Origin: a virus
Lineage: Duplodnaviria; Caudoviricetes
DNA length: 52,141 nucleotides
Reading direction: 5' to 3' (one strand)
Virus record (IMG/VR): IMGVR_UViG_3300050011_000039
Coordinates: 1-52,141 of that record
This document shows, in pieces, positions 1 through 52,141 of the stretch (positions are counted from its first letter, which is position 1; each line of letters opens with the position of its first letter). Position numbers and translations under genes: made by a program. Below the pieces are notes generated by a model. It worked only from the letters and a program-made list of their open reading frames with translations. It was not told where the DNA came from and ran no database searches.

Positions 1-925
1 CGCCGCTTGCAGCCAGACTCGTTCCTGTCGCCGCCCCAATGTTTGGCGTTACTAGCGTTGGCGACGTATCCACAACAAATTTCGTCCCTGTGCCGGTCTG
101 CGACGCGATAGATGTTGCATTGCCAGATGAGGTTATGACGCCTGTCAAATTAGCATTCGTCGTCACGGTTGAGGCGGCAATGGCTGTGTTGCATCCGAAG
201 CCTGTGCCGCTAGTCCATTTAAGGGCGCTTGCAGAGGTTGAGCACGAAGGCAATGCCAAATCTGAGGGTGTCGTAGCGGTCAATGCGCCAAGAACCGTGT
301 TTGCCGTTTGTGTCGCAAGTGTTGCCGTCAGGGTGCCGGATGTTGTGACTGCACTTGATGGGGTTGAAGATAATACTGTGCCGTCGCCGGTGAAAGTTAC
401 GGAGGTGACAGTGCCGGAGCCGGTACTGGCAGCAACCCACGAGGTATTACCAGAACCATCAGTCTGAAGAACATAAGTATTAGTTCCATTAGTTGCTGGC
501 AGTGTAAAATTAGTTCCCGTTCCTGCTGCTGCTGCGGCTTTCAATGTAACACTGCCGCTAGTAGAACCATTAAAAGTTATCTGTCCGTTGGTTCCTGAAT
601 TAGCCCCCGTTGACATAACGCCGCTTGCAGCCAGACTCGTTCCTGTCGCCGCCCCAATGTTTGGCGTTACTAGCGTTGGCGACGTATCCACAACAAATTT
701 CGTCCCTGTGCCGGTCTGCGACGCGATAGATGTTGCATTGCCAGATGAGGTTATGACGCCTGTCAAATTAGCATTCGTCGTCACGGTTGAGGCGGCAATG
801 GCTGTGTTGCATCCGAAGCCTGTGCCGCTAGTCCATTTAAGGGCGCTTGCAGAGGTTGAGCACGAAGGCAATGCCAAATCTGAGGGTGTCGTAGCGGTCA
901 ATGCGCCAAGAACCGTGTTTGCCGT
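1..925. repeat. Terminal redundancy of the contig, identical to 51217-52141 (circular overlap)
   Basis: cgccgcttgc... at position 1 recurs at 51217 and matches through to the last base (gccgt at 921-925 = 52137-52141). Confidence 0.95.
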
Positions 926-6600: not shown

Positions 6601-7736
6601 GTTTCGGCGTAGGTTTGGTGGAGGGTGTCAACAGGAGTGTTCATCACCGTCGCCACATCATGAAAGTCCTGCGCCTTCGGGTTCTGTGGCGTGAACGTCT
6701 TGTCTATAACCTGATTGGTGTCTTGTGGCGTTACGGCATCGACGGGTTTGCCTACGACATCGGCAACAGTTGGAGCCAACGCAGTATGACCGGCAGCATG
6801 AAGCGCGGTTCCGGTCCCGACCATTGACAGCAATCCGGCAGCCTGACTTATGGCTGATTGGGTTAGTGTGTCGCCGGGAAAGTTTGTCTGCGCCCATTGC
6901 TGCGCTTTTTCCTGTGAAAACTGACCACCAGCCCCGACCGCTGCTCCGGTGAATGCGTTCCACGCTTTTAATGCCAGTGTAGGGGCTTTCATTAATCCGC
7001 CAGCACCGCCAAACTGTATGACCTGATCGGCAATGTTTGCTGCGTCGCTATCAGCCGCACCATTTGGGAATAGTTTCGCGCCTATTTTGTCAAACAATTC
7101 CCCAAATGTCGGAACAGAAGGGTGATCTCCAAAAATATCCGGCAACTGTGGTAGGTATTTTGATACGTTATCGAGCATGTTTGGATTAGCGCGTAGTGCG
7201 AACCCCATTCCTAGTGCACCGACATTTAATGGAATATCGAATAGGTGTGCGCCAATGGTGTATGGATTAGACCAAGATGCCATGCCCAACGCATCACGCC
7301 CCGCCTCTTGTGCGTAGTGACTGGAGGGACTTGTTGCAGCGCCAGCCGCCGTTGGCAACACGCTCTGCGCATAATCCCCTGCCGTCGTCGCTGTACTGTT
7401 CTGATAGGCTTGCACAAGTCCAGCACGGGCAGCAGGTGGAAACGTGCCATCGCCGCCCTTCAACGCCGCCGTAACCTGAAAACCTAATCCAGCGTCAATC
7501 TTCTGCGCATCCATTTGTGGTTGTGCATTATCGGCAGGCGCAGGCTGTGCAGCAATGTTCTGTTGCACCTGCGCGACGATTGGCGCGGTATCGGGAAGTT
7601 TTGGCGGCGTAGGTGCGGGTTGAAACCCGACATCATCCGGTGCTGGCGCGGGAGCCGACGCTGGCTGGAAGCCGACATCAGTAGATGTATCTACAGGAGG
7701 ACCACCGATAGTAATGTGCAGCATATCATCAGCCAT
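3612..7736 (-). CDS. Large internal virion / DNA ejection protein (1374 aa)
   Basis: Size, Ala/Gln-rich helical composition, last of three genes after tail tubular B. Confidence 0.7.
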   Translation of the reverse strand: MADDMLHITIGGPPVDTSTDVGFQPASAPAPAPDDVGFQPAPTPPKLPDTAPIVAQVQQNIAAQPAPADNAQPQMDAQKIDAGLGFQVTAALKGGDGTFPPAARAGLVQAYQNSTATTAGDYAQSVLPTAAGAATSPSSHYAQEAGRDALGMASWSNPYTIGAHLFDIPLNVGALGMGFALRANPNMLDNVSKYLPQLPDIFGDHPSVPTFGELFDKIGAKLFPNGAADSDAANIADQVIQFGGAGGLMKAPTLALKAWNAFTGAAVGAGGQFSQEKAQQWAQTNFPGDTLTQSAISQAAGLLSMVGTGTALHAAGHTALAPTVADVVGKPVDAVTPQDTNQVIDKTFTPQNPKAQDFHDVATVMNTPVDTLHQTYAETGVHPDQVWEDAKNNPAIAADIQAGQVPDAYHDLRPATPVESGEAPGISASDIGELENVHAALSRRDAQLQDSAAKISSSLGDLNNLLSEMPRGAVSDQVQAALDQVKEMVNSLGSNDNFNEEKLANTFHDLSDRLGFIRQNITDTNVNKAASAIIDKISDIFLDREMSGGFLARDVADINRKFPGAGTDAKSLQDRIDKESRAWEERNRSRNEAIANKRANDLVNMAIEKQNTEEPEPTAGDQDALQEGGGQGGRGSEPPRGGGAGEPKEGPLTQPPALKDPRTFEDQLHQLSTNITADKLDIMKRAEAMPDLPSETWEKLYAYDENDPNVKLTPEEQAIYDEHIKPLKDLDDKLYQRLEGLVGNVDLGEEEGFFQRGYTPRYVKGRTRSFGEMLEQAKNGVVAKFGGAAGRSMRKTVDAQKSRRYYNAFDPATGEKKLVYIDKEHNVIAFENGKGTKIGTFGAGQKLAPGSEVKLRALDENGKPVGKSFKWKLDTALTSEIEGQTNQRYLKNVAANRLDLTAKLQSAVRNAEFIEAMKGSPEFDDVAVPVGGHNSVIPETDGRAWRTPKMLQFRNYYMEPKLADALDDYAKNTQLDGIGESLNRIGRLMMNVMFLNPYAHVSNIFNHMIVQGGLVGNIYHSPSTVMSLIKSFRDVYNVSDDYMANLRAGASLKHSEMLTSDLHQKLIEKLGIDAQKDPKAWDGLARAFGYNDTGTMLSRFASVGQRAMWFASDVMTNARMEQEQMLGKSRPEAIADVEKHMPNYRVPGQVLGSRTLAEGLKNPLWTMFGKYDYGRLKSYAALLKEGFGSGVSLTDRAKSFDRMAMIGVYMYAIYPALDKMWQEITGDKNASVVRSGAATIPQIVSDLVTGKKSVIDAAQAVMPTGIPIQLASDYMSGRYAWNGDPIINQSDVNNLRPQAAYDALNYVGSKLSYIGQAGNVMQNKGTASQMGYGLLGVKTPTDAQIKQRAYYKAREDTNAARRAGRLQQQRNNNR

Positions 7737-9934
7737 TACTGAACCCTCTTATAGCCAAGGGTTAATGCCTTATCGACATTCGCGGCAGGGATTGACCCCA
7801 TGCGTCCATCCGGCGACAGGACGCTGACCATCTCAGGTGCAGGAGCTTGCGCTGGAATTGCAGAAGGCGGAGGCGTTGATGTGCCATTCCAGATTGACTT
7901 TGCCATGTTGGCAATCTGATCCATACGCGATGATACCCAACTCTCAGGTTTCGGCCCTTGTGCGCCGCTATTGAGGCTTGTCACATAAGTCATCGGGTAA
8001 AAATCAGGCTGCTTCGATGCGTTCTGGTATGACTGATTGGCTTGCTGATACCAGCGCATTGCGCGTTGGTTCCCCTGTCCATCGACATTGCCGTTCGCGT
8101 TGGCAATCGCTTTCATATTCTCATGGATATAATCTTTCCATGTCTGGTCGGCATCAGTCAGAGGTTTGGCGTCGTTATAGTCTTTTAGATTAATGCCATT
8201 TCCGTCCTTGCGACCAAGCAGGCTATTAAGCCCGTTTTCGGATTCAATCGCGTCAGGACTTGGCTTCATTGTTGCCGGATCAATAGGCATGCTTGCCCGC
8301 ATAATCGTGTCAAACCCATTTGAGCTATTAGTTGTCGTGTTTCTGCTCGCCACTTCAGCAATCTTATCGGGGATGCTGTTGTAAAAAGCAGGGTCTTGGA
8401 CTGCGACACGCTTCACAACATCAGCAACCTTCGGATCAGCCATAAGTTGCTGATAGGTCTGCGGTGGTGGCGTTTGCCCATTACCTATAATAGCCTGCAT
8501 GACGGAATTATTGTCCTGCTTATACTGCGCCGCCTGACTTTCTGCGGCTGCTGATATGGTCTGGTTAACCTGCGTCCTGAATGACGAAACCATTGCGGGG
8601 TCATTCGGGAATTGCTTTCGCGCTGCTGCTTCTGCGTTGGCGAGCAACGTGTCTCTGTTTGCCACCATTGCATCCGTCATTGTCTGATAGGCAGATGTTG
8701 ACGCTGGTGCATTTGGCTGTGTTGCGGCCTGTTTGCCAGCCAAGGATGCCTGTACACCTTGCGCGATAACATCATCCGTAAATGCAACTTGTTTAGCGGG
8801 GGCGTTCTCGGCAACATTCATGCCCTTTAGAACCGCCTGAAGCTGCGTAGGATCGTTTAGATTAGGAACGGCATTTGGAGCAATCCAAGAGTTTTGACTT
8901 GCCGCCGCTACCCATGCCGCCGTTTTATCAGGTTCTCCCGTCCACTTCGCGCCAATCTGTTGCAGCGTCAACCCCTGATAATTACTGCGCAGATTATTGG
9001 CAGCAAGTATCGCGCCATCAACGGGTGTTGCCGGATTAACAAAATCAGCCGTGTTGTTCGCAGCACCAGCAGCCGTCTTGACGTTTCCTAGATTATTCGC
9101 GCTCACACCAGAACCGCTTGTTCCAGCTAACTGCGCTACCTGTTGCGGCAGCGTATTGAGGTACGAACTTGTCGCGGCATCCTTAACCTGTGGCAATAAC
9201 CACGCCTGTAGCTGAGTTTGAACAGTGCCGGGCAAGGATGACTTATTCGCCATGAAATCATTATATGCCGCTGTAGGGTCTGTCGCTGCCATTGCCTTGT
9301 ATTTAGTTTCAGCCGCCTTCTGCGCGAAATCGTTCTGATGAAACTGTATCTCATCTGGCGATTGTCCGACAGACGGCATCTCACCGTAAGATTTAATGGC
9401 AACCAAACCGTTCTGTAATTCTTGGGAATAAAGATTGGGATTATCCGATATATTTGTCAGATGGTTTGCTAACATCGCAGTCTGTGTATTGGCAGCAAAT
9501 GATGCAGCCTGTTGACCGGCGTGTTGGCTGGCGAATTGCAAGTCGCGCTCAGTGCGATTAACAGCCATTTCGTTAAATAGCATTTTTTGCTGACCAATAA
9601 GGCCCGATCCCACAGTATTCATCAAATCATTTACGCTCTGCTGATATTGCGGAAGCGTATCAACCGCCGCCTTACCAGATGTGCTGTAATAATCAGACGA
9701 TAGTTTTTGGAGGGCGGGCGAAAAAGTATTAACGAATGTATCGTTCACCACGCTCTTATTATACAAATCCTGCATATCCATTGCAGCCTTCAACACCGCC
9801 GCACCCTGTTCCTGCGCAGCCTCAAACGGAGCCTGCACATTCGTAACCTGTGCAATAGGCCGTTCTTCAGGTGTGGCTTCTGGTGTCGGCGTTGGGCCGT
9901 TGGATGCGAATGTTGGGAGGGTGATTTGTGGCAT
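7736..9934 (-). CDS. Internal virion / ejection protein with a lysozyme-like (NNPGNI-type) domain (732 aa)
   Basis: ANNLGNVK...F..PATPVDG..A...L...Y...TL.QI..KW...L..M...EN resembles virion-associated muralytic domains; synteny. Confidence 0.65.
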   Translation of the reverse strand: MPQITLPTFASNGPTPTPEATPEERPIAQVTNVQAPFEAAQEQGAAVLKAAMDMQDLYNKSVVNDTFVNTFSPALQKLSSDYYSTSGKAAVDTLPQYQQSVNDLMNTVGSGLIGQQKMLFNEMAVNRTERDLQFASQHAGQQAASFAANTQTAMLANHLTNISDNPNLYSQELQNGLVAIKSYGEMPSVGQSPDEIQFHQNDFAQKAAETKYKAMAATDPTAAYNDFMANKSSLPGTVQTQLQAWLLPQVKDAATSSYLNTLPQQVAQLAGTSGSGVSANNLGNVKTAAGAANNTADFVNPATPVDGAILAANNLRSNYQGLTLQQIGAKWTGEPDKTAAWVAAASQNSWIAPNAVPNLNDPTQLQAVLKGMNVAENAPAKQVAFTDDVIAQGVQASLAGKQAATQPNAPASTSAYQTMTDAMVANRDTLLANAEAAARKQFPNDPAMVSSFRTQVNQTISAAAESQAAQYKQDNNSVMQAIIGNGQTPPPQTYQQLMADPKVADVVKRVAVQDPAFYNSIPDKIAEVASRNTTTNSSNGFDTIMRASMPIDPATMKPSPDAIESENGLNSLLGRKDGNGINLKDYNDAKPLTDADQTWKDYIHENMKAIANANGNVDGQGNQRAMRWYQQANQSYQNASKQPDFYPMTYVTSLNSGAQGPKPESWVSSRMDQIANMAKSIWNGTSTPPPSAIPAQAPAPEMVSVLSPDGRMGSIPAANVDKALTLGYKRVQ

Positions 9935-35254: not shown

Positions 35255-36043
35255 ATGATCTCACTCGAAACCCTAAAAACCGGTGTATCAAAAGCACCAC
35301 CTCGTATCTTGCTTTATGGGGAAGAAAAAATCGGCAAGACGACCTTCGCCGCGAACGCACCTAACCCCGTGTTTCTCCGCACCGAGGACGGCGAAGGCAA
35401 GCTTGACCTGACCAGTTGGGACATCAAATCATTCGAGGACTTCCTTGATGCGATTGGTGTCTTAGCAACCCAAAAGCACGACTTCCAAACAGTTGTCATC
35501 GACACACTAGATTGGTTTGAGCCAATTGTTTGGAAACAGCTTATCAGGGATCGTCCGAAGAGCGAGAAGGGCGCAGTTATCGAAAACATTGATGACTATG
35601 GATTTGGCAAGGGATACGGATTTGCGATGGATTACTGGGTGCAAATCATTGATTGCCTCAACGCACTACGCAATGAGCGCAATATGATGGTTATCATGCT
35701 GGCTCACTCGCATATCAAATCCTATAGCCCGCCAGATGGCAGCAGCTATGACCGCTTTACCCTCAAGATGAACGAGAAAGCTTCAGAGAAGTTTATGGAG
35801 TTCTCGGATGCAATCTTTTTCGCCAAGAAAAAGATGTTTCTCGCTGATGACGAGGGCAAGAAGGGAGACAAGAACGCCAAGAAGAAGGCCGTAGGATCGT
35901 CGGACGGACGCGAGATCATGACAGAAAGCCTCCCAAGCTTCCGCGCTGGCAATCGCTATAATCTTCCGGCTTCCCTTCCGTTCGATGCGAATGTATGGAA
36001 TCTCATAAGCAAGGATATTCCTTATTTCGAGAAGTTTAAATAA
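35255..36043 (+). CDS. Sak4-like / AAA_24 ATPase
   Basis: LLYGEEKIGKTTFA, TVVIDTLDW, GFGKGY, MLAHS. Confidence 0.85.
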   Translation: MISLETLKTGVSKAPPRILLYGEEKIGKTTFAANAPNPVFLRTEDGEGKLDLTSWDIKSFEDFLDAIGVLATQKHDFQTVVIDTLDWFEPIVWKQLIRDRPKSEKGAVIENIDDYGFGKGYGFAMDYWVQIIDCLNALRNERNMMVIMLAHSHIKSYSPPDGSSYDRFTLKMNEKASEKFMEFSDAIFFAKKKMFLADDEGKKGDKNAKKKAVGSSDGREIMTESLPSFRAGNRYNLPASLPFDANVWNLISKDIPYFEKFK

Positions 36044-37869: not shown

Positions 37870-38499
37870 ATGAATAAAAATCTTCGATCATTGCCTAAAA
37901 TGAAAAAAGGTAAAACGAAAGATAAAAAGAAAGTATGTTCAATAAAAGATTGTGGGCGACCAGCCATATGCCGATGGATGTGCGAGAAACATTATTCAAG
38001 AATGAAGAAACACGGGACACTGGATGTATCTCGACTTGTAATAGATGATGTTATGGAAAGCTTTTGGGCGCGAACCAATAAAAAGGGCAAAGACGATTGC
38101 TGGAACTGGACTGGTTCTACAAGGGGAAGCGATCCAAAAAGGCAGTATGCTAGACATTGGAATGGTTCTGCATCCGAAAATGGACACCGATTCTCATATA
38201 GAAAATTTGTTGGAGAAATCCCAAAAGGTTTATGTGTATGTCACCATTGCGACAATCCATTGTGCGTAAACCCGCATCATTTATTTATTGGTACGCATAA
38301 AGATAATATGGCTGATATGAAAAAAAAGGGTAGGGCTTATGATGGATATGGAGAAGATAGGCCAATATCAGTCCTGACAAACAAACAAGCTGATGAAATC
38401 AGAAAATCCAGTCTTACAAGGAAGCAATTAAGAGAAAAGTATCAAGTTTCAGACTCAACAATAGGCCGCGTTCTTCGCGGAGAAAGCTATGTTGATTAA
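37870..38499 (+). CDS. HNH homing endonuclease
   Basis: CW.WTG, HRFSY....[29 protein letters not shown]; own TTGACA-N16-TATAGT promoter at 37812-37839. Confidence 0.9.
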
Positions 38500-40166
38500 T
38501 GTCATATACTTTAAGACCCTACCAAGAAGCCGCCACACAAGCGACGCTTGACTACCTGATGACGAAATCAGGCAATCCAGTAATCTCTGCTGCGCCTGGC
38601 TCCGGTAAATCTATCCTCATTGCAGAATTATGCCGCCGCGCCATAGAAATCCATCCAGCGACAAACATTATTATTGCCGTGAGCGCGAAGGAATTGGTCA
38701 GACAGAATTATGAGAAGCTAAAGGCAATCTGGCCGGAAGGAGACACAGGAATCTATTCGGCTGGATTAAACAAAAAGCAGATTCGCAAGGTAACTTTTGT
38801 TTCCATACAATCGGTCTTTCGCAAAGCGTTCAAGTTCCCATCAACAGCAATTCTTATCTGTGATGAGTGCCATCACATTAACAAGCGTCAGGTTGGTATC
38901 TGGCACAAGTTCATCGGAGACTTGCGAATCGCCAATCCGGAGCTTCGTGTAGTTGGCTATTCTGGAACCCCGTTTCGTTTGACGCAGGGATTGATTACGG
39001 AAGGCGAAGGAACGCTTTTTGACGAAGTGGTTTATGACATAGACATTATTAGCCTGATTGATGCTGGTTGGTTGTCGCCCCTATTCAGTCACAGAACTGT
39101 TACGAAGCTAGATGTTTCTAAAGTGGGGAAAAGGAACGGAGATTATATCGAAAGCCAACTACAGGCTGCTGTGAACATCGACAGCATAACACAGAATTGT
39201 GTGACCGAGATTGTTGCACAAGGAGAAGATAGAAAATGCTGGCTGGCCTTCTGCTCCGGCATAGAACACGCTTTTGCTGTGCGTGATGCGATAAGGGCGC
39301 GAGGGTATAGTTGCGAGACAGTAACGGGCGAAACACCGCGAATTGAGCGCGACAAAATAATTGAGGATTATAAGAACGGTTTAATTCGTTGCGTCACCAA
39401 TAATGCAGTTATGATTACTGGCGTTGATATTCCCCAAATCGACTTAATAGCTTTCCTAAGACCAACTCAAAGCCCCATTATATGGACGCAAGGTCTTGGT
39501 CGTGGCTTACGTCTTGCTGATGGCAAGAAGGACTGCAAGGTACTCGACTTCCCCGATAATGGCTCTTTTTTTGGGCCGCTAGATAAGATCAGGGTAAAAG
39601 CAAAAGAAAGCAGCGGGTTGGGCGAAGCCCCTGTTAAAATGTGCGGGAATTGCATGAGCGTAGTACCAGCAAGCGCGAGAGAGTGCAAAGAATGTGGATA
39701 TGTATTCCCCATTGATACATCACTAAAAATATCTGACAAAGCATCCGGTTCAATTCTACTCTCCAACCAACTCGACATTCGCACCCTAACCGTTCGTTCC
39801 GTTCACTATTCGCGTCATCGCAAAGAAGGACGCCCCGACACGTTCAAGGCTACATATATCGTAAACGAGGAAATAAAAACCTTTCCAGAATGGACTTCTC
39901 CGGAATCCGATAAGCGATCACGCTTTGAGGCATGGTGGCGCAAACGCTCTAATCAGTTGCCGCCAAAGGACGTAACGGGTTGTTTAGAGTTGCAGAAAAC
40001 ATTGCGGAACCCAACGACGATAACGGTTAGGGCGAATGGGAAGTATCACGACATTTTAGGTTACACGTTTGAAGAAACTCCAAAATGTCACGAAGCGTTC
40101 GACAAACTTTTCCAAGGTGAGAAGCCGTGGTTAAATACCCCCCAAATTCCTTCTGTGCAGGACTAG
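38499..40166 (+). CDS. SF2 DEAD/DEAH-box helicase (RadD/YejH-like) with zinc ribbon
   Basis: LRPYQ, APGSGKS, DECH, SGTPFR, TGVDIP, QGLGRGLR, CxxC...CxxC. Confidence 0.92.
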   Translation: MSYTLRPYQEAATQATLDYLMTKSGNPVISAAPGSGKSILIAELCRRAIEIHPATNIIIAVSAKELVRQNYEKLKAIWPEGDTGIYSAGLNKKQIRKVTFVSIQSVFRKAFKFPSTAILICDECHHINKRQVGIWHKFIGDLRIANPELRVVGYSGTPFRLTQGLITEGEGTLFDEVVYDIDIISLIDAGWLSPLFSHRTVTKLDVSKVGKRNGDYIESQLQAAVNIDSITQNCVTEIVAQGEDRKCWLAFCSGIEHAFAVRDAIRARGYSCETVTGETPRIERDKIIEDYKNGLIRCVTNNAVMITGVDIPQIDLIAFLRPTQSPIIWTQGLGRGLRLADGKKDCKVLDFPDNGSFFGPLDKIRVKAKESSGLGEAPVKMCGNCMSVVPASARECKECGYVFPIDTSLKISDKASGSILLSNQLDIRTLTVRSVHYSRHRKEGRPDTFKATYIVNEEIKTFPEWTSPESDKRSRFEAWWRKRSNQLPPKDVTGCLELQKTLRNPTTITVRANGKYHDILGYTFEETPKCHEAFDKLFQGEKPWLNTPQIPSVQD

Positions 40167-41605: not shown

Positions 41606-42250
41606 ATGAAGATAAGTTTTGAACGTCGCTTCTCATCCGAAATCGCTTTTGAGGTTGAGATCGATGATAGGCACAAGACAGACACGCTTCGCACTCAACG
41701 AGGTGAAGCCATCAAGCAAGCCTTAAAAGAAAAACGCAACCTGCGCGGCAGCAACCTGAGCGACAGCGACCTGAGCGGCAGCAACCTGAGCGGCAGCAAC
41801 CTGAGCGACAGCAACCTGAGCGGCAGCAACCTGAGCGACAGCGACCTGAGCGGCAGCAACCTGAGCGGCAGCAACCTGCGCGGCAGCGACCTGCGCGGCA
41901 GCAACCTGAGCGACAGCGACCTGAGCGGCAGCGACCTGAGCGGTGTGCCATTCATCAAGAATATTCATCAAACGCTCTACAATGCCGCCTCTGTGCCTCC
42001 TGAAGCTTTGGATATGTCAACATGGCATCACTCTTGTGGAACCACTCATTGCCGTGCAGGTTGGATTGTTAAGCTTGCTGGTGAAGGCGGCGCAGCTCTT
42101 GAATGGGCAATTGGTACACCAGCCGCAGCCGCGATGATTTACATCAAAAGCGATCCAAAGATCGAGCGGATACCTAATTTCTATGCCTCGAATGAGGACG
42201 CACTGGCTGATATGAAGCGGTTGGCAGATTTGGAAAAGGCCGCCGCATGA
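41606..42250 (+). CDS. Pentapeptide-repeat protein (214 aa)
   Basis: About 14 (S)NLSG/DLSG pentapeptides, then LDM..WH..CGTTHCRAGW. Confidence 0.88.
   Translation: MKISFERRFSSEIAFEVEIDDRHKTDTLRTQRGEAIKQALKEKRNLRGSNLSDSDLSGSNLSGSNLSDSNLSGSNLSDSDLSGSNLSGSNLRGSDLRGSNLSDSDLSGSDLSGVPFIKNIHQTLYNAASVPPEALDMSTWHHSCGTTHCRAGWIVKLAGEGGAALEWAIGTPAAAAMIYIKSDPKIERIPNFYASNEDALADMKRLADLEKAAA
41738..41943. repeat. 15-bp tandem repeats encoding pentapeptides
   Basis: (a/g)acctg(a/c)gcg(g/a)cagc, about 14 copies. Confidence 0.92.
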
Positions 42251-42420
42251 TCTACCTCATCAAACAATTCGGCCTAACCATGATAGCCCTCGCGCTAATC
42301 TTCCTCAGTATGAGCATAGACAACTTCACCGCGCAGCTTCACGCCAACACCTCAAAGGTCGCAGCCATGTCAGCCTGTCAGGTTCAACTGGCTGATTTAA
42401 CCCCAGGATGGAAGAAATGA
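42247..42420 (+). CDS. Small membrane protein (57 aa, not in the ORF track)
   Basis: ATGA-coupled at both ends; MIYLIKQFGLTMIALALIFLSMS. Confidence 0.55.
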   Translation: MIYLIKQFGLTMIALALIFLSMSIDNFTAQLHANTSKVAAMSACQVQLADLTPGWKK

Positions 42421-42587
42421 ACCTAATCCGCACAACCAAATATACCAAACACGGCGTTGCCGTAGGATTCAAGAACGTAGGGTTTGTCCCGTGGGTGTTG
42501 AGTAAGGTGTTTCCATATCGCTTGCCGCCCACATTCGGGATGCTTCTGGCGATCAGAGGAAGCGTTAAGCGTGGGTATTCAAGGTGA
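42417..42587 (+). CDS. Hypothetical protein (56 aa, not in the ORF track)
   Basis: ATGA/GTGA-coupled; MNLIRTTKYTKHGVAVGF. Confidence 0.5.
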   Translation: MNLIRTTKYTKHGVAVGFKNVGFVPWVLSKVFPYRLPPTFGMLLAIRGSVKRGYSR

Positions 42588-42721
42588 AGAACCTTCTGGG
42601 TCTTATACTGGTTATCGTGTTTGTGACAGTGGCAACCCATGAATGGAATGTTTACGGTGCAGTCAAGAAGAAAGTACCGGATAGCTGTGGGTATTCATTC
42701 AATGTTTATAACTGTTATTGA
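42584..42721 (+). CDS. Small membrane protein (45 aa, not in the ORF track)
   Basis: GTGA-coupled; MKNLLGLILVIVFVTVA. Confidence 0.5.
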   Translation: MKNLLGLILVIVFVTVATHEWNVYGAVKKKVPDSCGYSFNVYNCY

Positions 42722-42727
42722 AACAGT

Positions 42728-42910
42728 TCATCTGTTGTCGTTTGAAAACTCTTCCCCACTATAGAATGCTTTATGTAGTAAAGCGTCTAATTCACACATA
42801 ATCTCAGCCTCATTAAAAACAGTGTTTCCATCAGCATCTGTAGTGCTATGGCCTTTAATGTAGCCCATGAAGTCTTTTGCGCGTTGTGAGGGCATCGTTA
42901 CTGTTTTCAT
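42728..42910 (-). CDS. Hypothetical protein (60 aa), last gene of the array
   Basis: MKTVTMPS; motif CAGTAACGAT. Confidence 0.6.
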   Translation of the reverse strand: MKTVTMPSQRAKDFMGYIKGHSTTDADGNTVFNEAEIMCELDALLHKAFYSGEEFSNDNR

Positions 42911-43125
42911 ATTTCCCTATCAGCTATTTTCTTACAAGTTACGGAGATACTTATTTCAACATCTATATCGTTGCGTTTCGCACCGATTGTCGATGATCAA
43001 GTTATCTTCCCATCGCGGCTGCGGTAGGCAGATTCACTATGGTTGAGTTCTTTCTGCCCATAATCAACATAGTCAGCGATCAACTTCGTCACTTCACTCA
43101 GAGTCGTTACTGTCTTGTCAGCCAT
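42907..43125 (-). pseudogene. 72-codon ORF with one internal TGA (42997-42999)
   Basis: MADKTVTTLSEV...GKIT*SSTIGAKRNDIDVEISISVTCKKIADREI*; the distal stop overlaps the next ATG. Confidence 0.5.
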
Positions 43126-43268
43126 TTTTTGACCTTTCTAAATGCCATTTGAAGATCGTAAATCATCTCGCATTGAATGGCGAAATGAGATGCGCCGTGA
43201 TCCCATGCGACTTGCGCCATATCTGATTTGAATAGACGACTAGGCGTGGTTACTGGTTTGTCAGTCAT
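43107..43268 (-). CDS. Hypothetical protein (53 aa, not in the ORF track)
   Basis: AAGGA RBS; MTDKPVTTPSRLFKSD...; stop TAA lies inside the next motif. Confidence 0.55.
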   Translation of the reverse strand: MTDKPVTTPSRLFKSDMAQVAWDHGASHFAIQCEMIYDLQMAFRKVKKWLTRQ

Positions 43269-43404
43269 TTCTTTTTTCCTTTATGTAAGCAAGAATGGCT
43301 CTTTCCATTTTGGAAGATGTATCTGTGTGCAGATTTCTGTCTCTGCGCTTTATGGCGTTTTCTAGCCATGCGATCATTTCTTGCGGCGTAATTTTAGTCA
43401 TCAT
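43261..43404 (-). CDS. Hypothetical protein (47 aa, not in the ORF track)
   Basis: ATGA-coupled to the Dam-like gene; MMTKITPQEMIAWLENAIK. Confidence 0.55.
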   Translation of the reverse strand: MMTKITPQEMIAWLENAIKRRDRNLHTDTSSKMERAILAYIKEKRND

Positions 43405-43817
43405 GGCTTTGCTCTAAAGATCACTATTGCAGAAGGAAATTTTGCTCCATCCCCTGCACCCTGAAATCGTAGCCGTCCTTTCACGAACCGGATCTCGTCT
43501 GCCATCATTACCCATTGATGCCACCACTTGTTGTCTGTCCGAGAGGGAACAAGGCACACCACAGTCGCATGGCTTTCGTATGCTTTCTTGAGCCAAGTAC
43601 CTATGGCGGCTCCATAAGGAGGATTCATCCAACATGTTTCGCCCGTCCAATCCTGTTTTAATCCGTCTATTTCTTTATCGTAATAGCGCGCACATTTTGC
43701 CAATTCTTTGTTGGCGCAAACATCCACCGTGAACTCAAATTCTTTATTGAGTTCATCGAATAATCGTTGTGGCGTTCCCCATTCAAACTTTCCGGTTGTG
43801 TTGTCTGTGAAGCTCAT
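43401..43817 (-). CDS. Phage DNA N6-adenine methyltransferase (Dam-phage family)
   Basis: EWGTPQ.LF..L..EF.F.VDVCA, DGL.QDW, WMNPPYG, LVPSRTD..WW, GRL.F. Confidence 0.9.
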   Translation of the reverse strand: MSFTDNTTGKFEWGTPQRLFDELNKEFEFTVDVCANKELAKCARYYDKEIDGLKQDWTGETCWMNPPYGAAIGTWLKKAYESHATVVCLVPSRTDNKWWHQWVMMADEIRFVKGRLRFQGAGDGAKFPSAIVIFRAKP

Positions 43818-43842
43818 GACTGACCCGTTGTGGTTTCAGTTT

Positions 43843-44076
43843 TCATGGATAACTCCTGCGGTTCCATCTTTTAGTTAAATCAGCGTCCAACTTATCCATC
43901 GTTTCCAAGCGTGTGTGAGCATCATCAATCCAGCATTGACTGCGATGAAGAAATACATTGCACCGGCATTCTAGCGTCCGTCCTATAATTGTTCCTGCAT
44001 CATATCGGTCGCTTATAGGGTAAGGGTTTTCACCGCAGAACGGGCATGGCAAAAGCGTGGTTTTAGATTCTTGCAC
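43843..44076 (-). CDS. Lar-like (restriction alleviation) zinc-finger protein (77 aa)
   Basis: LLPCPFCGE...C.C...WNRR; GTG start after GGAGG. Confidence 0.7.
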   Translation of the reverse strand: MQESKTTLLPCPFCGENPYPISDRYDAGTIIGRTLECRCNVFLHRSQCWIDDAHTRLETMDKLDADLTKRWNRRSYP

Positions 44077-44242
44077 GAATGTCCTCCCTCTCATGCTCTC
44101 TTGCCATGTCATAAACGCGCTGGGCAAAATCCATGACGGCGCTTACTTTGCTGCCATGGCTCATGTCGCCTTCTAGGTAATTCACAAGTCCTTCGGCGGC
44201 GGCATATTTCTGCTCGTAGGTCGTCGTTTGTGGATTAGACAT
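44063..44242 (-). CDS. Hypothetical protein (59 aa)
   Basis: Start revised to MSNPQTTTYEQK. Confidence 0.6.
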   Translation of the reverse strand: MSNPQTTTYEQKYAAAEGLVNYLEGDMSHGSKVSAVMDFAQRVYDMAREHEREDIRARI

Positions 44243-44420
44243 TCTGCTTCCCCTTCCATTCGATATAGTCATCCAACCATTCCGATAGATCGTCGCCATC
44301 ATTAAATGCGATTAGAAATTCCAAGCGATCATAATGATCGTCAATCTCAATGGCGAACGCGATGGCCTGCCGCGAGTTTGGCGGCGCAGGAATCGTCTTG
44401 GGAGTCGTTTGAGTTGTCAT
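44235..44420 (-). CDS. Hypothetical protein (61 aa)
   Basis: GGAG RBS; MTTQTTPKT. Confidence 0.6.
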   Translation of the reverse strand: MTTQTTPKTIPAPPNSRQAIAFAIEIDDHYDRLEFLIAFNDGDDLSEWLDDYIEWKGKQNV

Positions 44421-44677
44421 TATTTCTCCCCCACAAGGATTGGCCTGTTCGCATTTTTCTTATTCTTGGGGAATGGAGGCTCATCTGGAAGGTGTTGCCA
44501 GTGGGTCAAGCCATCATCATCGTATGAATTTACATCATCTGAAATAACCCCTGATTCTCCCATCATGGCGATAACCATTCGACCCCAACCCTCGCCAAAC
44601 AGAACCCAAATGTTTTTTGGGCAAGACGCTATTGGCCTCCATTTGCTTTTCGTCGTTTGTGTTTTCTGATCGCTCAT
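44420..44677 (-). CDS. DUF551-like protein (85 aa)
   Basis: WRPIASCPK...VL...THWQHLPDEPP. Confidence 0.65.
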   Translation of the reverse strand: MSDQKTQTTKSKWRPIASCPKNIWVLFGEGWGRMVIAMMGESGVISDDVNSYDDDGLTHWQHLPDEPPFPKNKKNANRPILVGEK

Positions 44678-45417
44678 GGTCTTACCTCCATAAAGGCAGT
44701 TATAAATTCTGCGGCTACTTGCGGCACAATCGCGTTCCCATAGGCTCGCACTGATCCCATTGGGAAGGAAACCCCATAAGCCAACGGAGATGTTCCCTGC
44801 TCAATACGCCGCGCTCTTTTATCGGGACTGTCGAATTTTTGGAATTGCTCCCAGCTTCCCCCTGTAGATTCAGCTTGTCGCTGCACTTTCTCCCACTCGA
44901 TGACATGTGAGCCGATGGCGTCTGCCACCCAGAAAATTCTTTGTCGCTTGTGAGGCGCACCGACGCTCGCAGCGCACAGATCGGCTCCCCCGCTTTCATA
45001 TCCCAATGCTTCCATGTTGTTTCGTACTCCCGCGAACCAGTCTCTCCCAGCCTTGCTCTCAACCTGTTCTCCAAAGACGATTGGAGGCTTGCATTGCGCG
45101 ATGAGGCAATAGAAATCCGGCCACAGGTGCCGTTCGTCGTTTTCGCCTTTGCCGAGGCCGCCTGCGCTGAAAGGTTGGCAGGGGCATGATCCTGTCCACA
45201 CTCGCCTGTCGTCATCCCATCCAGCGAGACGCAGAGCGTAAGACCATCCACCGATCCCTGCGAAGAAGTGGCATTGGGTATATCCTTTGAGGTCATCGGC
45301 TTTTACATCCTTTATACTGCGTTCATCTACATCGCCGGGGGCGATCAATCCGGCTTTGATTAGGTTGCGAAGCCATTGCGCGGGGTAAGCTTCCCATTCG
45401 TTGTAATATGCGCTCAT
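44674..45417 (-). CDS. C5-cytosine DNA methyltransferase, alpha polypeptide
   Basis: Motifs I FFAGIGG, IV GSCPCQPFS, VI EQV, VIII HKRQRIFWVA, X YGNAIVPQVA; no clear motif IX. Confidence 0.9.
   Translation of the reverse strand: MSAYYNEWEAYPAQWLRNLIKAGLIAPGDVDERSIKDVKADDLKGYTQCHFFAGIGGWSYALRLAGWDDDRRVWTGSCPCQPFSAGGLGKGENDERHLWPDFYCLIAQCKPPIVFGEQVESKAGRDWFAGVRNNMEALGYESGGADLCAASVGAPHKRQRIFWVADAIGSHVIEWEKVQRQAESTGGSWEQFQKFDSPDKRARRIEQGTSPLAYGVSFPMGSVRAYGNAIVPQVAAEFITAFMEVRP
44715..45296 (-). CDS. Putative beta polypeptide of the C5 methyltransferase, nested in an alternative frame
   Basis: 193-codon nested ORF with SGWQTP and LSREHLRWLMGFPSQW (motif IX-like); true start uncertain. Confidence 0.7.
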   Translation of the reverse strand: MTSKDIPNATSSQGSVDGLTLCVSLDGMTTGECGQDHAPANLSAQAASAKAKTTNGTCGRISIASSRNASLQSSLENRLRARLGETGSREYETTWKHWDMKAGEPICALRASVRLTSDKEFSGWQTPSAHMSSSGRKCSDKLNLQGEAGSNSKNSTVPIKERGVLSREHLRWLMGFPSQWDQCEPMGTRLCRK

Positions 45418-46097
45418 TTCCTGCTGCCCTTCTTGCCTACATCAAGTTGCAGGACACGGCCTTCTTCCCACATCTCTCGCCTACGCTTGATAGTGATAGG
45501 CTTGCAGCCGACAATCCTAGCCGCGCCCTTGTCCGAGCCAGCCTTCTTTAATGCGGCCTTGATTTCTTCATCTGTATAATCCGAAGGCTTGCCGCCTATC
45601 ACGCCGCGCTCACGCGCTGAGTTCAAGCCATGCTTTGTACGTTCCCAATTCCATTCACGCTCCCATTGCGCCAATGCCCCGAGAATGTGAAAGATCATGC
45701 GGCCAGAGGCGTTTGTCGTGTCTATGTCCTGGGCAATAACTTTTAGGCGAACGCCTTTTTCAAAAAGATGTTTTTCAATATCAATTAAATCTTTGAGATT
45801 TCGGCCAAGGCGATCAAGCGTATATATCACCAGCAAGTCGCCTTTTTGCAAATCGCGGAAGCAGGCTTGCCATGCCGCACGATCAACAGTCTTGCCGCTT
45901 TGCTTGTCCTGAAAAATATCTTCGGGGGCTACACCATATTTTACCAGCTCATCTACTTGCCGCTGATTATTTTGGTCGTTGGTAGAAACACGGGCATAGC
46001 CGAGCATCATTTGACCGTCCTTCGGGCGTTTCCATTTCACGGTTGTTTTTGCAACAACGTGAATGTAGTGCTTCTTTTTGGGGCCGCGTTTCTTCAT
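45414..46097 (-). CDS. Small serine recombinase (resolvase/invertase family), 227 aa
   Basis: GYARVSTNDQ, D..SGK...R, GD.LVIYTLDRLGR, ERT..GL..AR.RG..GG.P, C-terminal HTH. Confidence 0.93.
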   Translation of the reverse strand: MKKRGPKKKHYIHVVAKTTVKWKRPKDGQMMLGYARVSTNDQNNQRQVDELVKYGVAPEDIFQDKQSGKTVDRAAWQACFRDLQKGDLLVIYTLDRLGRNLKDLIDIEKHLFEKGVRLKVIAQDIDTTNASGRMIFHILGALAQWEREWNWERTKHGLNSARERGVIGGKPSDYTDEEIKAALKKAGSDKGAARIVGCKPITIKRRREMWEEGRVLQLDVGKKGSRK

Positions 46098-46109
46098 TTT
46101 AGACCAGTA

Positions 46110-46181
46110 TTTGACAAGGGGGTTGACAGACCGTTACAGAACCCGTATACAGTAACCCTAGGCACCAAGTCAAGTGTCAAA
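46110..46181. promoter_or_regulatory. Nested inverted repeats: candidate 28-bp recombinase site (46131-46158) overlapping a strong promoter
   Basis: CCGTTACAG-N10-CAGTAACCC flanked by TTTGACA...TGTCAAA and TTGAC...GTCAA; plus-strand TTGACA-N17-TATACA. Confidence 0.6.
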
Positions 46182-46216
46182 CACAAAATAGAAACTCAAT
46201 CCCCCAAAAAAAAGCC

Positions 46217-46396
46217 ATGAGAACTGACAATATAACTGTTCACTTTGTTCACCCTCCCATTCCGGCACGACAGTTTGATTGGTGTGCGAAATTCGACAAT
46301 GACGAACCGGATGACGATGGGAATATGCTGATGGGTTACGGCAAGACGCCACAGGAAGCCGTTGCCGATCTAATTGAAAATGCCGACAATCTATAA
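46217..46396 (+). CDS. Hypothetical protein (59 aa, not in the ORF track)
   Basis: MRTDNITVHFVHPPIPARQFDWCA...GYGKTPQEAVADL. Confidence 0.6.
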   Translation: MRTDNITVHFVHPPIPARQFDWCAKFDNDEPDDDGNMLMGYGKTPQEAVADLIENADNL

Positions 46397-46442
46397 CCCC
46401 AAAATATGACCATGAACAAATCTGACGAAATGAGGACACCTA

Positions 46443-46718
46443 ATGGATAACGCAGTTCTGAATATCAAAAAAGGCCAAGGCATTACTTTGGTTATCGAGG
46501 GATACGAAGATCATGCCGCATCGTTTGAACACGATGACGTTTTGCAAGTCATTCTCACACAAGCGCAAACTGATCTAAATAAACGCCGGAGCGAACGCCA
46601 GCGCCTTGCGTATGAAAAAGATTGTGTTGAACAAAAATATAATGCTGCTAACCAATGCGCCACCGGAACTGCCATAGACGGACCGTCCGGTCTTGGTTTA
46701 TATCCTCGCAACCACTAA
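46443..46718 (+). CDS. Hypothetical protein
   Basis: GAGGA RBS. Confidence 0.6.
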   Translation: MDNAVLNIKKGQGITLVIEGYEDHAASFEHDDVLQVILTQAQTDLNKRRSERQRLAYEKDCVEQKYNAANQCATGTAIDGPSGLGLYPRNH

Positions 46719-50326: not shown

Positions 50327-52141
50327 TTAAAGCCCTGTGCAAGTACATGCGCCCGTTGCTCCGACAACTGTTGTGCAATATCCAGCCGCCCCGCCCGTTG
50401 TCCAGCAAGCAGCCTGACCTGCATGAGCAGAGGCATTTTGAAGTGTAAATTCTCCGGGCGTGGCTGATGAAGTCCCAACAGCAACCGACCCCTGAACAAT
50501 CATCCCATTCGTCGGAGCTGCCGTCACACCAGCGTAGCTTGTGCCGATTGCGACATTGCCGTACACATCGAGTTCGGATGCTGGTGATGTCGTCCCAATC
50601 CCGACGTTGCCGCTATTCGAAATTCGCATATACTCGGACCAGGTAGCTGAATTATTCCTCTCTAGGAATAGCAGGCTGCCATTGTCAGAACCGCTGGAGA
50701 AGTTAGGCGAAGCCAGTTTCCAGCCGTACCCGCCGCCTGCAGGCGAGAAGTTGAATTCAATGCCCCCAGATTGCGCGGTTGCGGTACGTCCAAGAACGAT
50801 TTGTGCATCGTCAATTGTCGGCCTGCCTGTAGAGAGATTACCGGCCGCGAAAGCCGCGCCGGATATATAAAGGCGGCTCGAGGTGCTGGCGGCTCCGACT
50901 TGAAGAGGCGCTTCCGGCGAGGTTGTCCCGATCCCGACACTGCCTGCTGTCGTGAGTGTCATCAACGCGCCGTAAGCGCCGCCATTGATCGAGCTGCTCC
51001 AGGTAAGGTTCCCCGAAGGGTTGGCTGCGCCCTGTACGGGTTGCAGTTCCTCGATCATATCGACTGCTTGGCTGGCGGACGTGTTTGTCTCCCAGCCGCG
51101 TCCGTCAAAGTGGAGGCGCGGTGACCATTGTTGGGCGCCTAAAGCCGCCGCCGTCGTGTTGGTTAGCACGAGACCGTTGGTGCTGGTCACGCCGATGGAT
51201 TGGGTGTCGGTAACCGCGCCGCTTGCAGCCAGACTCGTTCCTGTCGCCGCCCCAATGTTTGGCGTTACTAGCGTTGGCGACGTATCCACAACAAATTTCG
51301 TCCCTGTGCCGGTCTGCGACGCGATAGATGTTGCATTGCCAGATGAGGTTATGACGCCTGTCAAATTAGCATTCGTCGTCACGGTTGAGGCGGCAATGGC
51401 TGTGTTGCATCCGAAGCCTGTGCCGCTAGTCCATTTAAGGGCGCTTGCAGAGGTTGAGCACGAAGGCAATGCCAAATCTGAGGGTGTCGTAGCGGTCAAT
51501 GCGCCAAGAACCGTGTTTGCCGTTTGTGTCGCAAGTGTTGCCGTCAGGGTGCCGGATGTTGTGACTGCACTTGATGGGGTTGAAGATAATACTGTGCCGT
51601 CGCCGGTGAAAGTTACGGAGGTGACAGTGCCGGAGCCGGTACTGGCAGCAACCCACGAGGTATTACCAGAACCATCAGTCTGAAGAACATAAGTATTAGT
51701 TCCATTAGTTGCTGGCAGTGTAAAATTAGTTCCCGTTCCTGCTGCTGCTGCGGCTTTCAATGTAACACTGCCGCTAGTAGAACCATTAAAAGTTATCTGT
51801 CCGTTGGTTCCTGAATTAGCCCCCGTTGACATAACGCCGCTTGCAGCCAGACTCGTTCCTGTCGCCGCCCCAATGTTTGGCGTTACTAGCGTTGGCGACG
51901 TATCCACAACAAATTTCGTCCCTGTGCCGGTCTGCGACGCGATAGATGTTGCATTGCCAGATGAGGTTATGACGCCTGTCAAATTAGCATTCGTCGTCAC
52001 GGTTGAGGCGGCAATGGCTGTGTTGCATCCGAAGCCTGTGCCGCTAGTCCATTTAAGGGCGCTTGCAGAGGTTGAGCACGAAGGCAATGCCAAATCTGAG
52101 GGTGTCGTAGCGGTCAATGCGCCAAGAACCGTGTTTGCCGT
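50327..52141 (-). CDS. 3' part of the origin-spanning fibre/adhesin-like protein
   Basis: Two G(S/N)VGIGTTSP repeats, T/S/G-rich, Cys-rich C-terminal tip. Confidence 0.85.
   Translation of the reverse strand, partial: TANTVLGALTATTPSDLALPSCSTSASALKWTSGTGFGCNTAIAASTVTTNANLTGVITSSGNATSIASQTGTGTKFVVDTSPTLVTPNIGAATGTSLAASGVMSTGANSGTNGQITFNGSTSGSVTLKAAAAAGTGTNFTLPATNGTNTYVLQTDGSGNTSWVAASTGSGTVTSVTFTGDGTVLSSTPSSAVTTSGTLTATLATQTANTVLGALTATTPSDLALPSCSTSASALKWTSGTGFGCNTAIAASTVTTNANLTGVITSSGNATSIASQTGTGTKFVVDTSPTLVTPNIGAATGTSLAASGAVTDTQSIGVTSTNGLVLTNTTAAALGAQQWSPRLHFDGRGWETNTSASQAVDMIEELQPVQGAANPSGNLTWSSSINGGAYGALMTLTTAGSVGIGTTSPEAPLQVGAASTSSRLYISGAAFAAGNLSTGRPTIDDAQIVLGRTATAQSGGIEFNFSPAGGGYGWKLASPNFSSGSDNGSLLFLERNNSATWSEYMRISNSGNVGIGTTSPASELDVYGNVAIGTSYAGVTAAPTNGMIVQGSVAVGTSSATPGEFTLQNASAHAGQAACWTTGGAAGYCTTVVGATGACTCTGL
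51217..52141. repeat. Terminal redundancy, identical to 1-925
   Basis: Direct comparison. Confidence 0.95.

Follow-up and report, generated by a model that had tools for sequence, protein, structure and literature searches.

Organization of the locus

The viral record IMGVR_UViG_3300050011_000039 (Duplodnaviria; Caudoviricetes), analyzed here over its whole length of 52,141 nucleotides (nt) and referred to as the window, is a complete phage genome (IMG/VR: direct terminal repeats, 100% completeness). Its first and last 925 nt (1-925 and 51217-52141) are identical and form a terminal direct repeat. On the minus strand lies an operon in which a gene for a small serine recombinase is followed by a C5 methyltransferase gene and ten short reading frames, the last ending at 42728 (Table 1). 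The subject of this study is a short nucleotide motif that recurs within the first codons of most of these reading frames, where it separates a brief leader from otherwise unrelated coding sequence (the cargo). A first-pass annotation, made from the letters alone, had recognized eight copies of the motif; all eight are present, on the minus strand, at the positions in Table 1. It proves to be a genuine nucleotide element, conserved and locked in frame, and it marks the joints between leader and cargo in hypervariable gene arrays of phages; such a joint is apparently undescribed so far.

Table 1. Features of the recombinase-headed operon and its upstream region (window coordinates; aa, amino acids; ORF, open reading frame).
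Feature	Position	Strand	Family match or motif copy
Conserved non-coding block upstream of recombinase gene	46098..46216	(-)	alignment of 13 upstream regions
Small serine recombinase, 227 aa, first gene of operon	45414..46097	(-)	PF00239 E=5.5e-38
C5 cytosine methyltransferase, 247 aa, without motif	44674..45417	(-)	PF00145 E=9.3e-15; TIGR00675
Cargo gene 1, 85 aa, weak DUF551 match, leader MSDQKTQTT	44420..44677	(-)	motif copy 1 44652-44661
Cargo gene 2, 61 aa, no family, leader MTTQTT	44235..44420	(-)	motif copy 2 44404-44413
Cargo gene 3, 59 aa, no family, leader MSNPQTT	44063..44242	(-)	motif copy 3 44223-44232
Cargo gene 4, 77 aa, Lar-like, GTG start, leader VQESKTT	43843..44076	(-)	PF14354; motif copy 4 44057-44066
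Ten-codon leader mini-ORF, MKTETTTGQS*	43814..43846	(-)	motif copy 5 43830-43839
Dam-like N6-adenine methyltransferase, 138 aa, without motif	43401..43817	(-)	PF05869 E=1.6e-28
Small ORF, 47 aa, MMTKITPQ, without motif	43261..43404	(-)	
Cargo gene 6, 53 aa, leader MTDKPVTT	43107..43268	(-)	motif copy 6 43246-43255
Cargo gene 7, 42 aa, leader MADKTVTT	42997..43125	(-)	motif copy 7 43103-43112, includes TAA stop of gene 6
Cargo gene 8, 60 aa, last of array, leader MKTVTM	42728..42910	(-)	motif copy 8 42894-42903, AT not AC

Anatomy and statistics of the motif

The consensus CWVWAACSAY, a post-hoc fit to the window copies, has 12 matches in the 52,141 nt, eight of them within the 1.8-kb array; shuffled sequences give an expectation of 4.65, and none of 100 shuffles reached 12. 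At the protein level, a Thr-Thr pair (TT) stands within the first 12 residues of 7/9 array genes and 7/76 other window genes (crude gene call), while the rate of internal TT predicts about 5.5% of genes. Chance and a general N-terminal bias were rejected as explanations on the basis of the shuffles, the TT counts in array and other genes, and the placement by strand and start.

The claim that the motif stands at eight gene starts holds for the coordinates and needs one correction: copy 5 belongs to a mini-ORF, not to the start of the Dam-like methylase gene, whose ATG (43817-43815) overlaps the TGA of the mini-ORF. This methylase has no motif and no clear Shine-Dalgarno sequence (SD) of its own and is coupled to the mini-ORF. 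Five mini-ORFs of 10-12 codons with the motif were found, one in the window and four in locus L001. All five end, as ATGA or GTGA, on the start of the next, motif-less gene, and 4/5 of the genes fed in this way lack an SD of their own (by inspection).

Refined from 53 curated copies in four phages, the motif reads [ACT]C[AT] [CGA][A>T][A>T] AC[GC] AC, an 11-nt word (HCW-VWA-ACS-AC) preceded by an A-rich codon. Its edge is sharp, with information falling to about 0 bits straight after the final AC in the 53 copies. When the first nine bases alone are used as the definition, the next two are AC in 101 of 113 copies. The motif is locked to the sense strand and to one reading frame, downstream of a start codon preceded by an SD that is itself ordinary and variable; the distance from ATG to motif ranges from 0 to 6 codons, and the frame is constant in about 100 copies. 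With a pattern defined by nucleotides only, an in-frame start no more than 6 codons upstream accompanies 7/11 matches on the minus strand of the window and 8/9 on the plus strand of a second phage (G002); the plus strand of the window has 0 matches. By inspection, the remaining two frames of the word could likewise encode hydrophilic N-termini.

Diversity among copies is considerable (39 distinct 9-mers among 94), and the longest run in common between many pairs is about 4 nt. Four positions have two states, and at 4/4 the alternative base is the A/T or G/C partner (A36/T15, A40/T7, A41/T7, G32/C20). Structural and other genes of the array-bearing phages lack the motif. In a handful of well-formed leaders the final dinucleotide is GC or AT (L138, 3568 and 3638; L141, 2407; window, 42894-42903); the window example, with AT, belongs to the last gene of the array.

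Selection on nucleotides

Constrained wobble positions had been read in the first-pass annotation as a sign of selection on DNA or RNA rather than on the peptide. This holds when array starts are picked on the strength of their peptide alone (n=114, each with a single run of TT; some spurious ORFs included) and compared with 160 internal TT as controls. The first Thr codon is ACG or ACC in 103/114 array starts vs. 109/160 controls, and the codon before TT ends in A in 94/114 vs. 31/160. Gln is encoded in array-start leaders by CAA 54 times and CAG once, and Val by GTA 12 times and GTT once, with GTA making up 13-16% of Val codons in these genomes. A Thr two codons earlier uses ACA or ACT only, the first Thr of the pair uses ACG or ACC, and the second tracks genome usage. 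The control peptide A-[KE]-[TS]-T-V-K-W, conserved in the recombinase of the same loci, is free in its synonymous codons. A KTT near the recombinase N-terminus was tried as a further motif copy and rejected because its codons vary freely. Judged by this codon usage, selection is on the nucleotides, not on the peptide; since synonymous sites are constrained, the Thr-Thr is a by-product of the nucleotide word.

T4 internal proteins carry a capsid-targeting leader, and the array leaders might by analogy be a peptide tag, with [PTS]-x-T-T at the N-terminus directing where the protein goes, how it is processed or how fast it turns over. T-T is indeed almost invariant in the protein, and residues 2-4 can be similar even where Ser codons come from different families (TCT vs. 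AGT, MSDPQTT). However, synonymous positions are fixed in a position-specific manner (ACA/ACT vs. ACG/ACC for Thr), the mini-ORFs of 10-12 codons carry the motif with no protein attached, the second Thr follows from AC plus any base, and a truly conserved peptide, that of the recombinase, uses free codons. A peptide tag, already disfavored, is hardly credible.

Distribution among phages

A recombinase 71% identical to that of the window led to a complete 69.9-kb phage, G001 (IMGVR_UViG_3300028666_000032). The pattern, applied to nucleotides only with no start-codon or frame condition, matches G001 39 times on the array strand and 0 times on the opposite one; 38 of the 39 have an in-frame start no more than 6 codons upstream, and looser copies take the array to about 59 kb. 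The two phages have little else in common (4/85 window proteins). Motif-first scans of IMG/VR revealed additional arrays in G002/G003, G004, G005 and G006. A search for a single phage protein common to all array-bearing phages, a possible reader of the motif, found none.

Starting from the recombinase, we scanned metagenome and genome collections and arrived at 13 distinct loci, the window and G001 included; a Paraburkholderia genome and an alphaproteobacterial metagenome-assembled genome contribute one each. All 11 of the recombinase loci with at least 200 nt of downstream sequence have motif-bearing starts there. Leader islands aside, the recombinase gene is the sole nucleotide-level similarity among the recombinase-bearing loci. 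The phage collection contained no recombinase more than 60% identical to that of the window, and a profile search with the recombinase alignment yielded as further matches only distant homologs, which lack the repeated leader, as does L088.

The arrangement around the recombinase varies. In L142 and L134 an array stands upstream on the opposite strand; in L140 a second array converges on the first. Opposed arrays, convergent or divergent around the recombinase, extend over 4520-6571 (+) and 6543-7855 (-) in L140 and 45-677 (-) in L134, with similar arrangements in L142 and L006. If two opposed copies recombined by inversion, their cargo would change places in frame and every gene would be kept. 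Within 4520-6200 of L140, seven of ten leaders read MTQTT; six of these have the sequence ATGACTCAAACGAC and one differs by a single base. Two adjacent cargo genes of L140 resemble paralogs, and their similarity suggests a tandem cassette duplication.

In DNA comparisons with cultured relatives, coverage of the region by any one record stays within 13%; L025, which has a C5 methylase 65% identical to that of the window, shows no array downstream; and the 53-aa cargo protein has no relatives in IMG/VR. A match of the 59-aa cargo protein in L150 was dismissed as a spurious local match inside an unrelated 151-aa protein.

Cargo turnover and joints at motif edges

Close relatives of the recombinase head entirely different arrays: relatives whose recombinases show 75-91% protein identity (72-81% nucleotide) have no array DNA in common. 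Public metagenome contigs aligned to the window (uncovered parts in runs X2-X4 are uninformative) show where homology ends. Among the matches listed, two contigs of run X3 lose homology at 44056, immediately past motif copy 4, and a 368-nt contig of run X4 aligns over 43106-43247 only (5 differences in 142 nt), a stretch that begins in the core of copy 6 and reaches copy 7; beyond it, on either side, the contig is unlike the window. These breaks at motif edges agree, within the matches listed, with the first-pass expectation that gene content in relatives would change at the motif.

Leaders can also be shared when nothing else is. Leader-only islands link the window with G004 (33 nt) and with L137 (44 nt) and end 2-3 nt past the AC; the leader of cargo gene 3 is nearly identical to one in the unrelated G004, with both flanks different. 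Conversely, homologous cargo occurs behind other leaders. The Lar-like cargo begins right at the joint, with the PF14354 match of the window protein starting at residue 7, and the same is seen in L138 behind a different leader. The Dam-like homologs in L132 and L133 have a motif-bearing leader fused in frame, with a linker.

The recombinase and its upstream block

The best solved relative of the recombinase is the Gin DNA invertase (E=2.2e-36, residues 30-182; E=2.5e-25 for gamma-delta resolvase). About 30 additional residues precede the canonical MLGYARVS start, and neither this N-terminal extension nor the C-terminal DNA-binding domain is matched to Gin. In G001, a second, truncated copy of the recombinase gene lies inside the array at 55389-55634 (+); its product (81 aa, 54% identical to the window enzyme) covers only the end of the catalytic domain and the DNA-binding domain.

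The non-coding block upstream of the recombinase gene contains, as does the same region in 12 relatives, a TTGAC-like box, two TACTGTA and two TGTCAA repeats, and blastn high-scoring segment pairs of the relatives extend into it. Going by its sequence, the block could be a promoter, an operator, a recombinase-binding region or an attachment (att) site. Inverted repeats near the recombinase gene and at the genome ends include nothing motif-like.

A different role for the enzyme is suggested by phiRSM Int of Burkholderiales phages. This small recombinase of the resolvase/invertase type both integrates and excises, using a site of 13 bases (PMC4471427), and the RSM1 protein is 40% identical to the window enzyme over residues 5-184. 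Unlike the array, phiRSM has a single attP beside the gene and a tRNA-Ser target, and no gene arrays are reported in the available part of that account. By this comparison the recombinase may be the integrase of the phage, placed beside an accessory-gene region as in phiRSM and acting perhaps at the upstream block (46098-46216). No tyrosine integrase (PF00589) was matched in G000 (the window), G001, G002, G004, G005 or G006.

A proposed model for exchange at the motif

We propose that the motif acts at the DNA level and that each joint consists of a portable translation start (SD, ATG, 0-6 free codons and HCW-VWA-ACS-AC) and an exchangeable cargo reading frame. Because all copies are in the same frame, exchange between any two of them would give an in-frame fusion. 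Cargo unfit for fusion could be served by a leader ORF of 10-12 codons whose stop overlaps the start codon of the cargo. The most likely catalyst would be the Gin-like small serine recombinase that heads the array, with the nine conserved bases as one recognition half-site and the invariant AC as the crossover dinucleotide. Both the exchange at the motif and the recombinase as its agent are inferred. A leader-cargo joint with exchange at the motif by a Gin-like recombinase, using a half-site and an AC core, is the best single mechanism that we can put forward, and we give it somewhat less than an even chance.

The half-site proposal draws on a comparison by hand with Table 1 of PMC4587366. The left half-site of Hin, TCAAAAACC, fits the 9-nt pattern at 9/9 positions, the right half of Gin at 8/9, the right half of Hin at 7/9 and the left half of Gin at 6/9; left halves of Tn3, Sin, beta, Bin and Tn21 fit at 3-6/9. 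The probability that a random 9-mer fits fully is about 0.001. The nine bases are followed by AC in 101/113 copies, as a crossover core would demand. A/T and G/C partner bases are indistinguishable to groove read-out of duplex DNA; the two-state degeneracy of the motif matches this kind of read-out, and not the purine/pyrimidine pattern of RNA pairing.

In its full form the proposal is a tentative one. A Gin/phiRSM-Int-like enzyme would recognize a single 9-bp half-site with its AC core, in frame and a few codons past the ATG. Cargo lacking a start could then be excised, could change places through inversion where arrays are opposed, or could pass from one co-infecting phage to another, even an unrelated one, and would always land behind a ready ribosome-binding site (RBS) and start; array phages without the enzyme would use one in trans.

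A number of observations weigh against this model. Some concern the site. No inverted second half-site follows the AC, and known Hin/Gin sites have two; a palindromic full-site version of the motif is not enriched in the window (19 matches vs. 18.2 expected). All eight window copies are direct repeats, and invertases normally act on inverted sites. Avoidance of the motif elsewhere in the genomes is not significant (8 observed vs. 12.3 simulated, P=0.12), and chance copies are present in structural genes. Others concern the enzyme. Of five independent motif-first arrays, only G001 has PF00239; the domain is absent from G002 (77% complete), G006 (61%), G004 (31%) and G005 (26%), which are all incomplete records, and the G002 array comes after a helicase. 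The enzyme may also simply be an integrase, as set out above.

The remainder concern the joints. Whole leaders, from ATG to AC, are identical between unrelated phages with both flanks different, and this counts against the model because a one-site crossover does not predict such a pattern. The 3' boundary of the X4 match is ambiguous, with the stop codon of gene 6 inside copy 7. Contigs of the probable source run have a single form, with no joint, excision or rearrangement inside the array among the matches listed; contigs drop rare variants, which makes this absence weak evidence.

Set against these points, the larger claims of the first-pass annotation fare unevenly. That the motif marks junctions of modules agrees with the content turnover and the two homology breaks at motif edges, and the excised circles or reordered cassettes that should then appear in reads were not found in the contigs of the source run, among the matches listed. 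The idea of every module providing its successor with RBS and ATG is compatible with one X4 piece, with the ambiguity just described of an upstream stop inside the next motif. Integron-style shuffling by a serine recombinase gains from the Gin-like enzyme and the half-site likeness; it loses from the missing second half-site and the arrays in incomplete, resolvase-less records.

The motif could alternatively act in RNA, where translation starts. It might be an operator at which a regulator of translation or a nuclease acts (T4 RegA or RegB act on early mRNAs), or an enhancer resembling the start-associated sequences (SAS) of mycobacteriophages, the homology breaks being a by-product of interchangeable leaders. 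This would account for a motif that is always on the sense strand, 0-6 codons past an SD-preceded start, for arrays in records without a recombinase, and for whole leaders common to unrelated phages with different flanks. The mini-ORFs, 5/5 of which end on the next start and 4/5 of which feed genes without an SD, imply that initiation at the motif-bearing start is selected, and SAS, a start-codon-tied repeat of non-structural genes with no known function in the available text of PMC3203893, offers a precedent. However, the frame never shifts in about 100 copies whose distance from the ATG differs by as much as 6 codons, the A/T and G/C degeneracy is unlike RNA pairing, and the motif is missing from structural and other genes of these phages. 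Start regions with the motif fold like those of other genes (mean -8.0 vs. -8.3 kcal/mol, P=0.66), and the idea that the motif keeps the start region unstructured was rejected because predicted folding energy is no different. No phage protein is common to all array phages as a reader, and no Rfam family or tRNA gene was found. We hold an RNA-level role to be unlikely, while regarding it as a serious candidate.

Exchange might also need no dedicated enzyme. The leader would then be a shared linker on which relaxed homologous or microhomology recombination acts, through agents such as a phage Sak4-like P-loop protein or host functions, with in-frame products surviving and motif-bearing cassettes spreading. 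The homology breaks at motif edges and the leader-only islands of 33 nt (G004) and 44 nt (L137) fit such a process, which also accounts for arrays without a recombinase. The window encodes a TIGR01618-type protein (E=1e-6, below the curated cut-off) and a RadD-like helicase, and recombination at T4-type promoter early stem-loops (PeSL) shuffles ORFs and makes mini-circles, according to the available text of PMC2839356. Yet the 94 copies comprise 39 haplotypes, and many pairs have only about 4 nt of continuous identity, a length too short for homologous recombination and normal for a protein recognition site. The position-specific degeneracy, invariant AC and sharp edge resemble a recognition site, not a homology patch, and the word is kept in phages with almost no other sequence in common. 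We consider enzyme-free exchange improbable.

Comparison with known systems

The first-pass annotation knew of no described resolvase-based equivalent, and our search of the literature, supplementary files apart, is in line with this: it returned SAS and PeSL, and neither a comparable system nor a description of this element.

The Gin/Cin/Hin systems (Mu, P1, Salmonella) are close in several respects. The array enzyme is a small serine recombinase whose nearest solved relative is Gin, and the nine array bases resemble the hix/gix half-site ...AAACC beside a 2-bp core (PMC4587366, Table 1). Cin and Gin sites link a constant 5' gene part to variable 3' parts (bioRxiv 10.1101/2022.07.24.501295, in the text available), and the array site likewise lies inside coding sequence, as does cix in the P1 S gene, joining constant 5' and variable 3' parts in frame. 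In contrast, the array motif has one half-site where theirs is a 26-bp site of two inverted 12-bp halves and a 2-bp core; up to about 39 copies occur in an array vs. two sites, and the window copies are direct repeats. The constant part in the arrays is 4-9 codons, and cargo consists of unrelated small genes rather than tail-fiber ends. The array enzyme also has its extra N-terminal stretch and a C-terminal domain that does not align with Gin.

Integrons resemble the array in that a recombinase gene heads a one-directional series of small genes, unrelated to each other and without promoters, every one of which bears a short conserved site, and in that content differs wholly between close relatives. 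They differ in enzyme class, the array enzyme being a serine recombinase with no IntI-type tyrosine recombinase (PF00589) in the six records. The array site is asymmetric, 11 nt long and lacks a conserved partner arm, unlike the hairpin attC with its inverted repeats; it lies in the reading frame at the 5' end of the gene and supplies the start codon, whereas attC is at the 3' end of the cassette. The carrier of the array is a phage.

SAS of Cluster K mycobacteriophages are, like the array motif, short asymmetric repeats in one orientation at the starts of unrelated non-structural genes; they are conserved across subclusters and their function is given as unknown (PMC3203893, available text). 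SAS lie 3-7 bp upstream of the start and contain the SD (GGGATAGGAGCCC), whereas the array word is downstream of the ATG, frame-locked and translated. PeSL of T4-type phages are similarly short conserved elements between small ORFs of hyperplastic regions where modules are shuffled; as described in the accessible parts of PMC2839356 and PMC4122927, they are promoter and terminator stem-loops working through homologous recombination. The array element is coding, and promoters and terminators are not enriched around it.

Other features of the window

In 42300-46500, promoter-like sites (5 found vs. 6.0 expected) and terminator-like sites (5 found vs. 4.3 expected) are not enriched. Searches for tRNA genes and Rfam families found none. 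Sequencing runs that contain window sequence are labeled peat, permafrost and lake water, and none of those listed is an RNA run. The terminal repeat contains a tandem unit of about 618 nt (39-467 vs. 657-1085, 392/429 positions alike), and a long minus-strand ORF spans the window ends. The 214-aa protein encoded at 41606-42250 (+) includes an extended tract of pentapeptide repeats (SGSNL/SDSDL), and contigs from public metagenomes stack on this stretch to a summed depth of up to about 1245, presumably owing to the repeat. The replication module includes, at 35255-36043 and 38499-40166 (+), a 'phage nucleotide-binding protein' (TIGR01618, E=1e-6, below the curated cut-off, possibly Sak4-like) and the RadD-like helicase, a homolog of which sits immediately upstream of the G002 array.

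Implications

The motif points to a standard 'plug' with which phages exchange small accessory genes. Many array cargo genes, such as the Lar-like protein and methyltransferases seen here, likely have anti-defense functions. If the link with the recombinase is true, a second enzyme class would be added to the systems that capture cassettes, and the arrays would match the integron in function while relying on another type of recombinase and on a site in the coding frame; this would explain how ORFan-rich hypervariable phage regions are assembled, and would provide a minimal in-frame recombination site for engineering. If instead the motif acts at the RNA level, it would be a regulon-wide start-region signal of a new type. 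On either reading, the motif is a simple sequence handle for finding such arrays in metagenomes.

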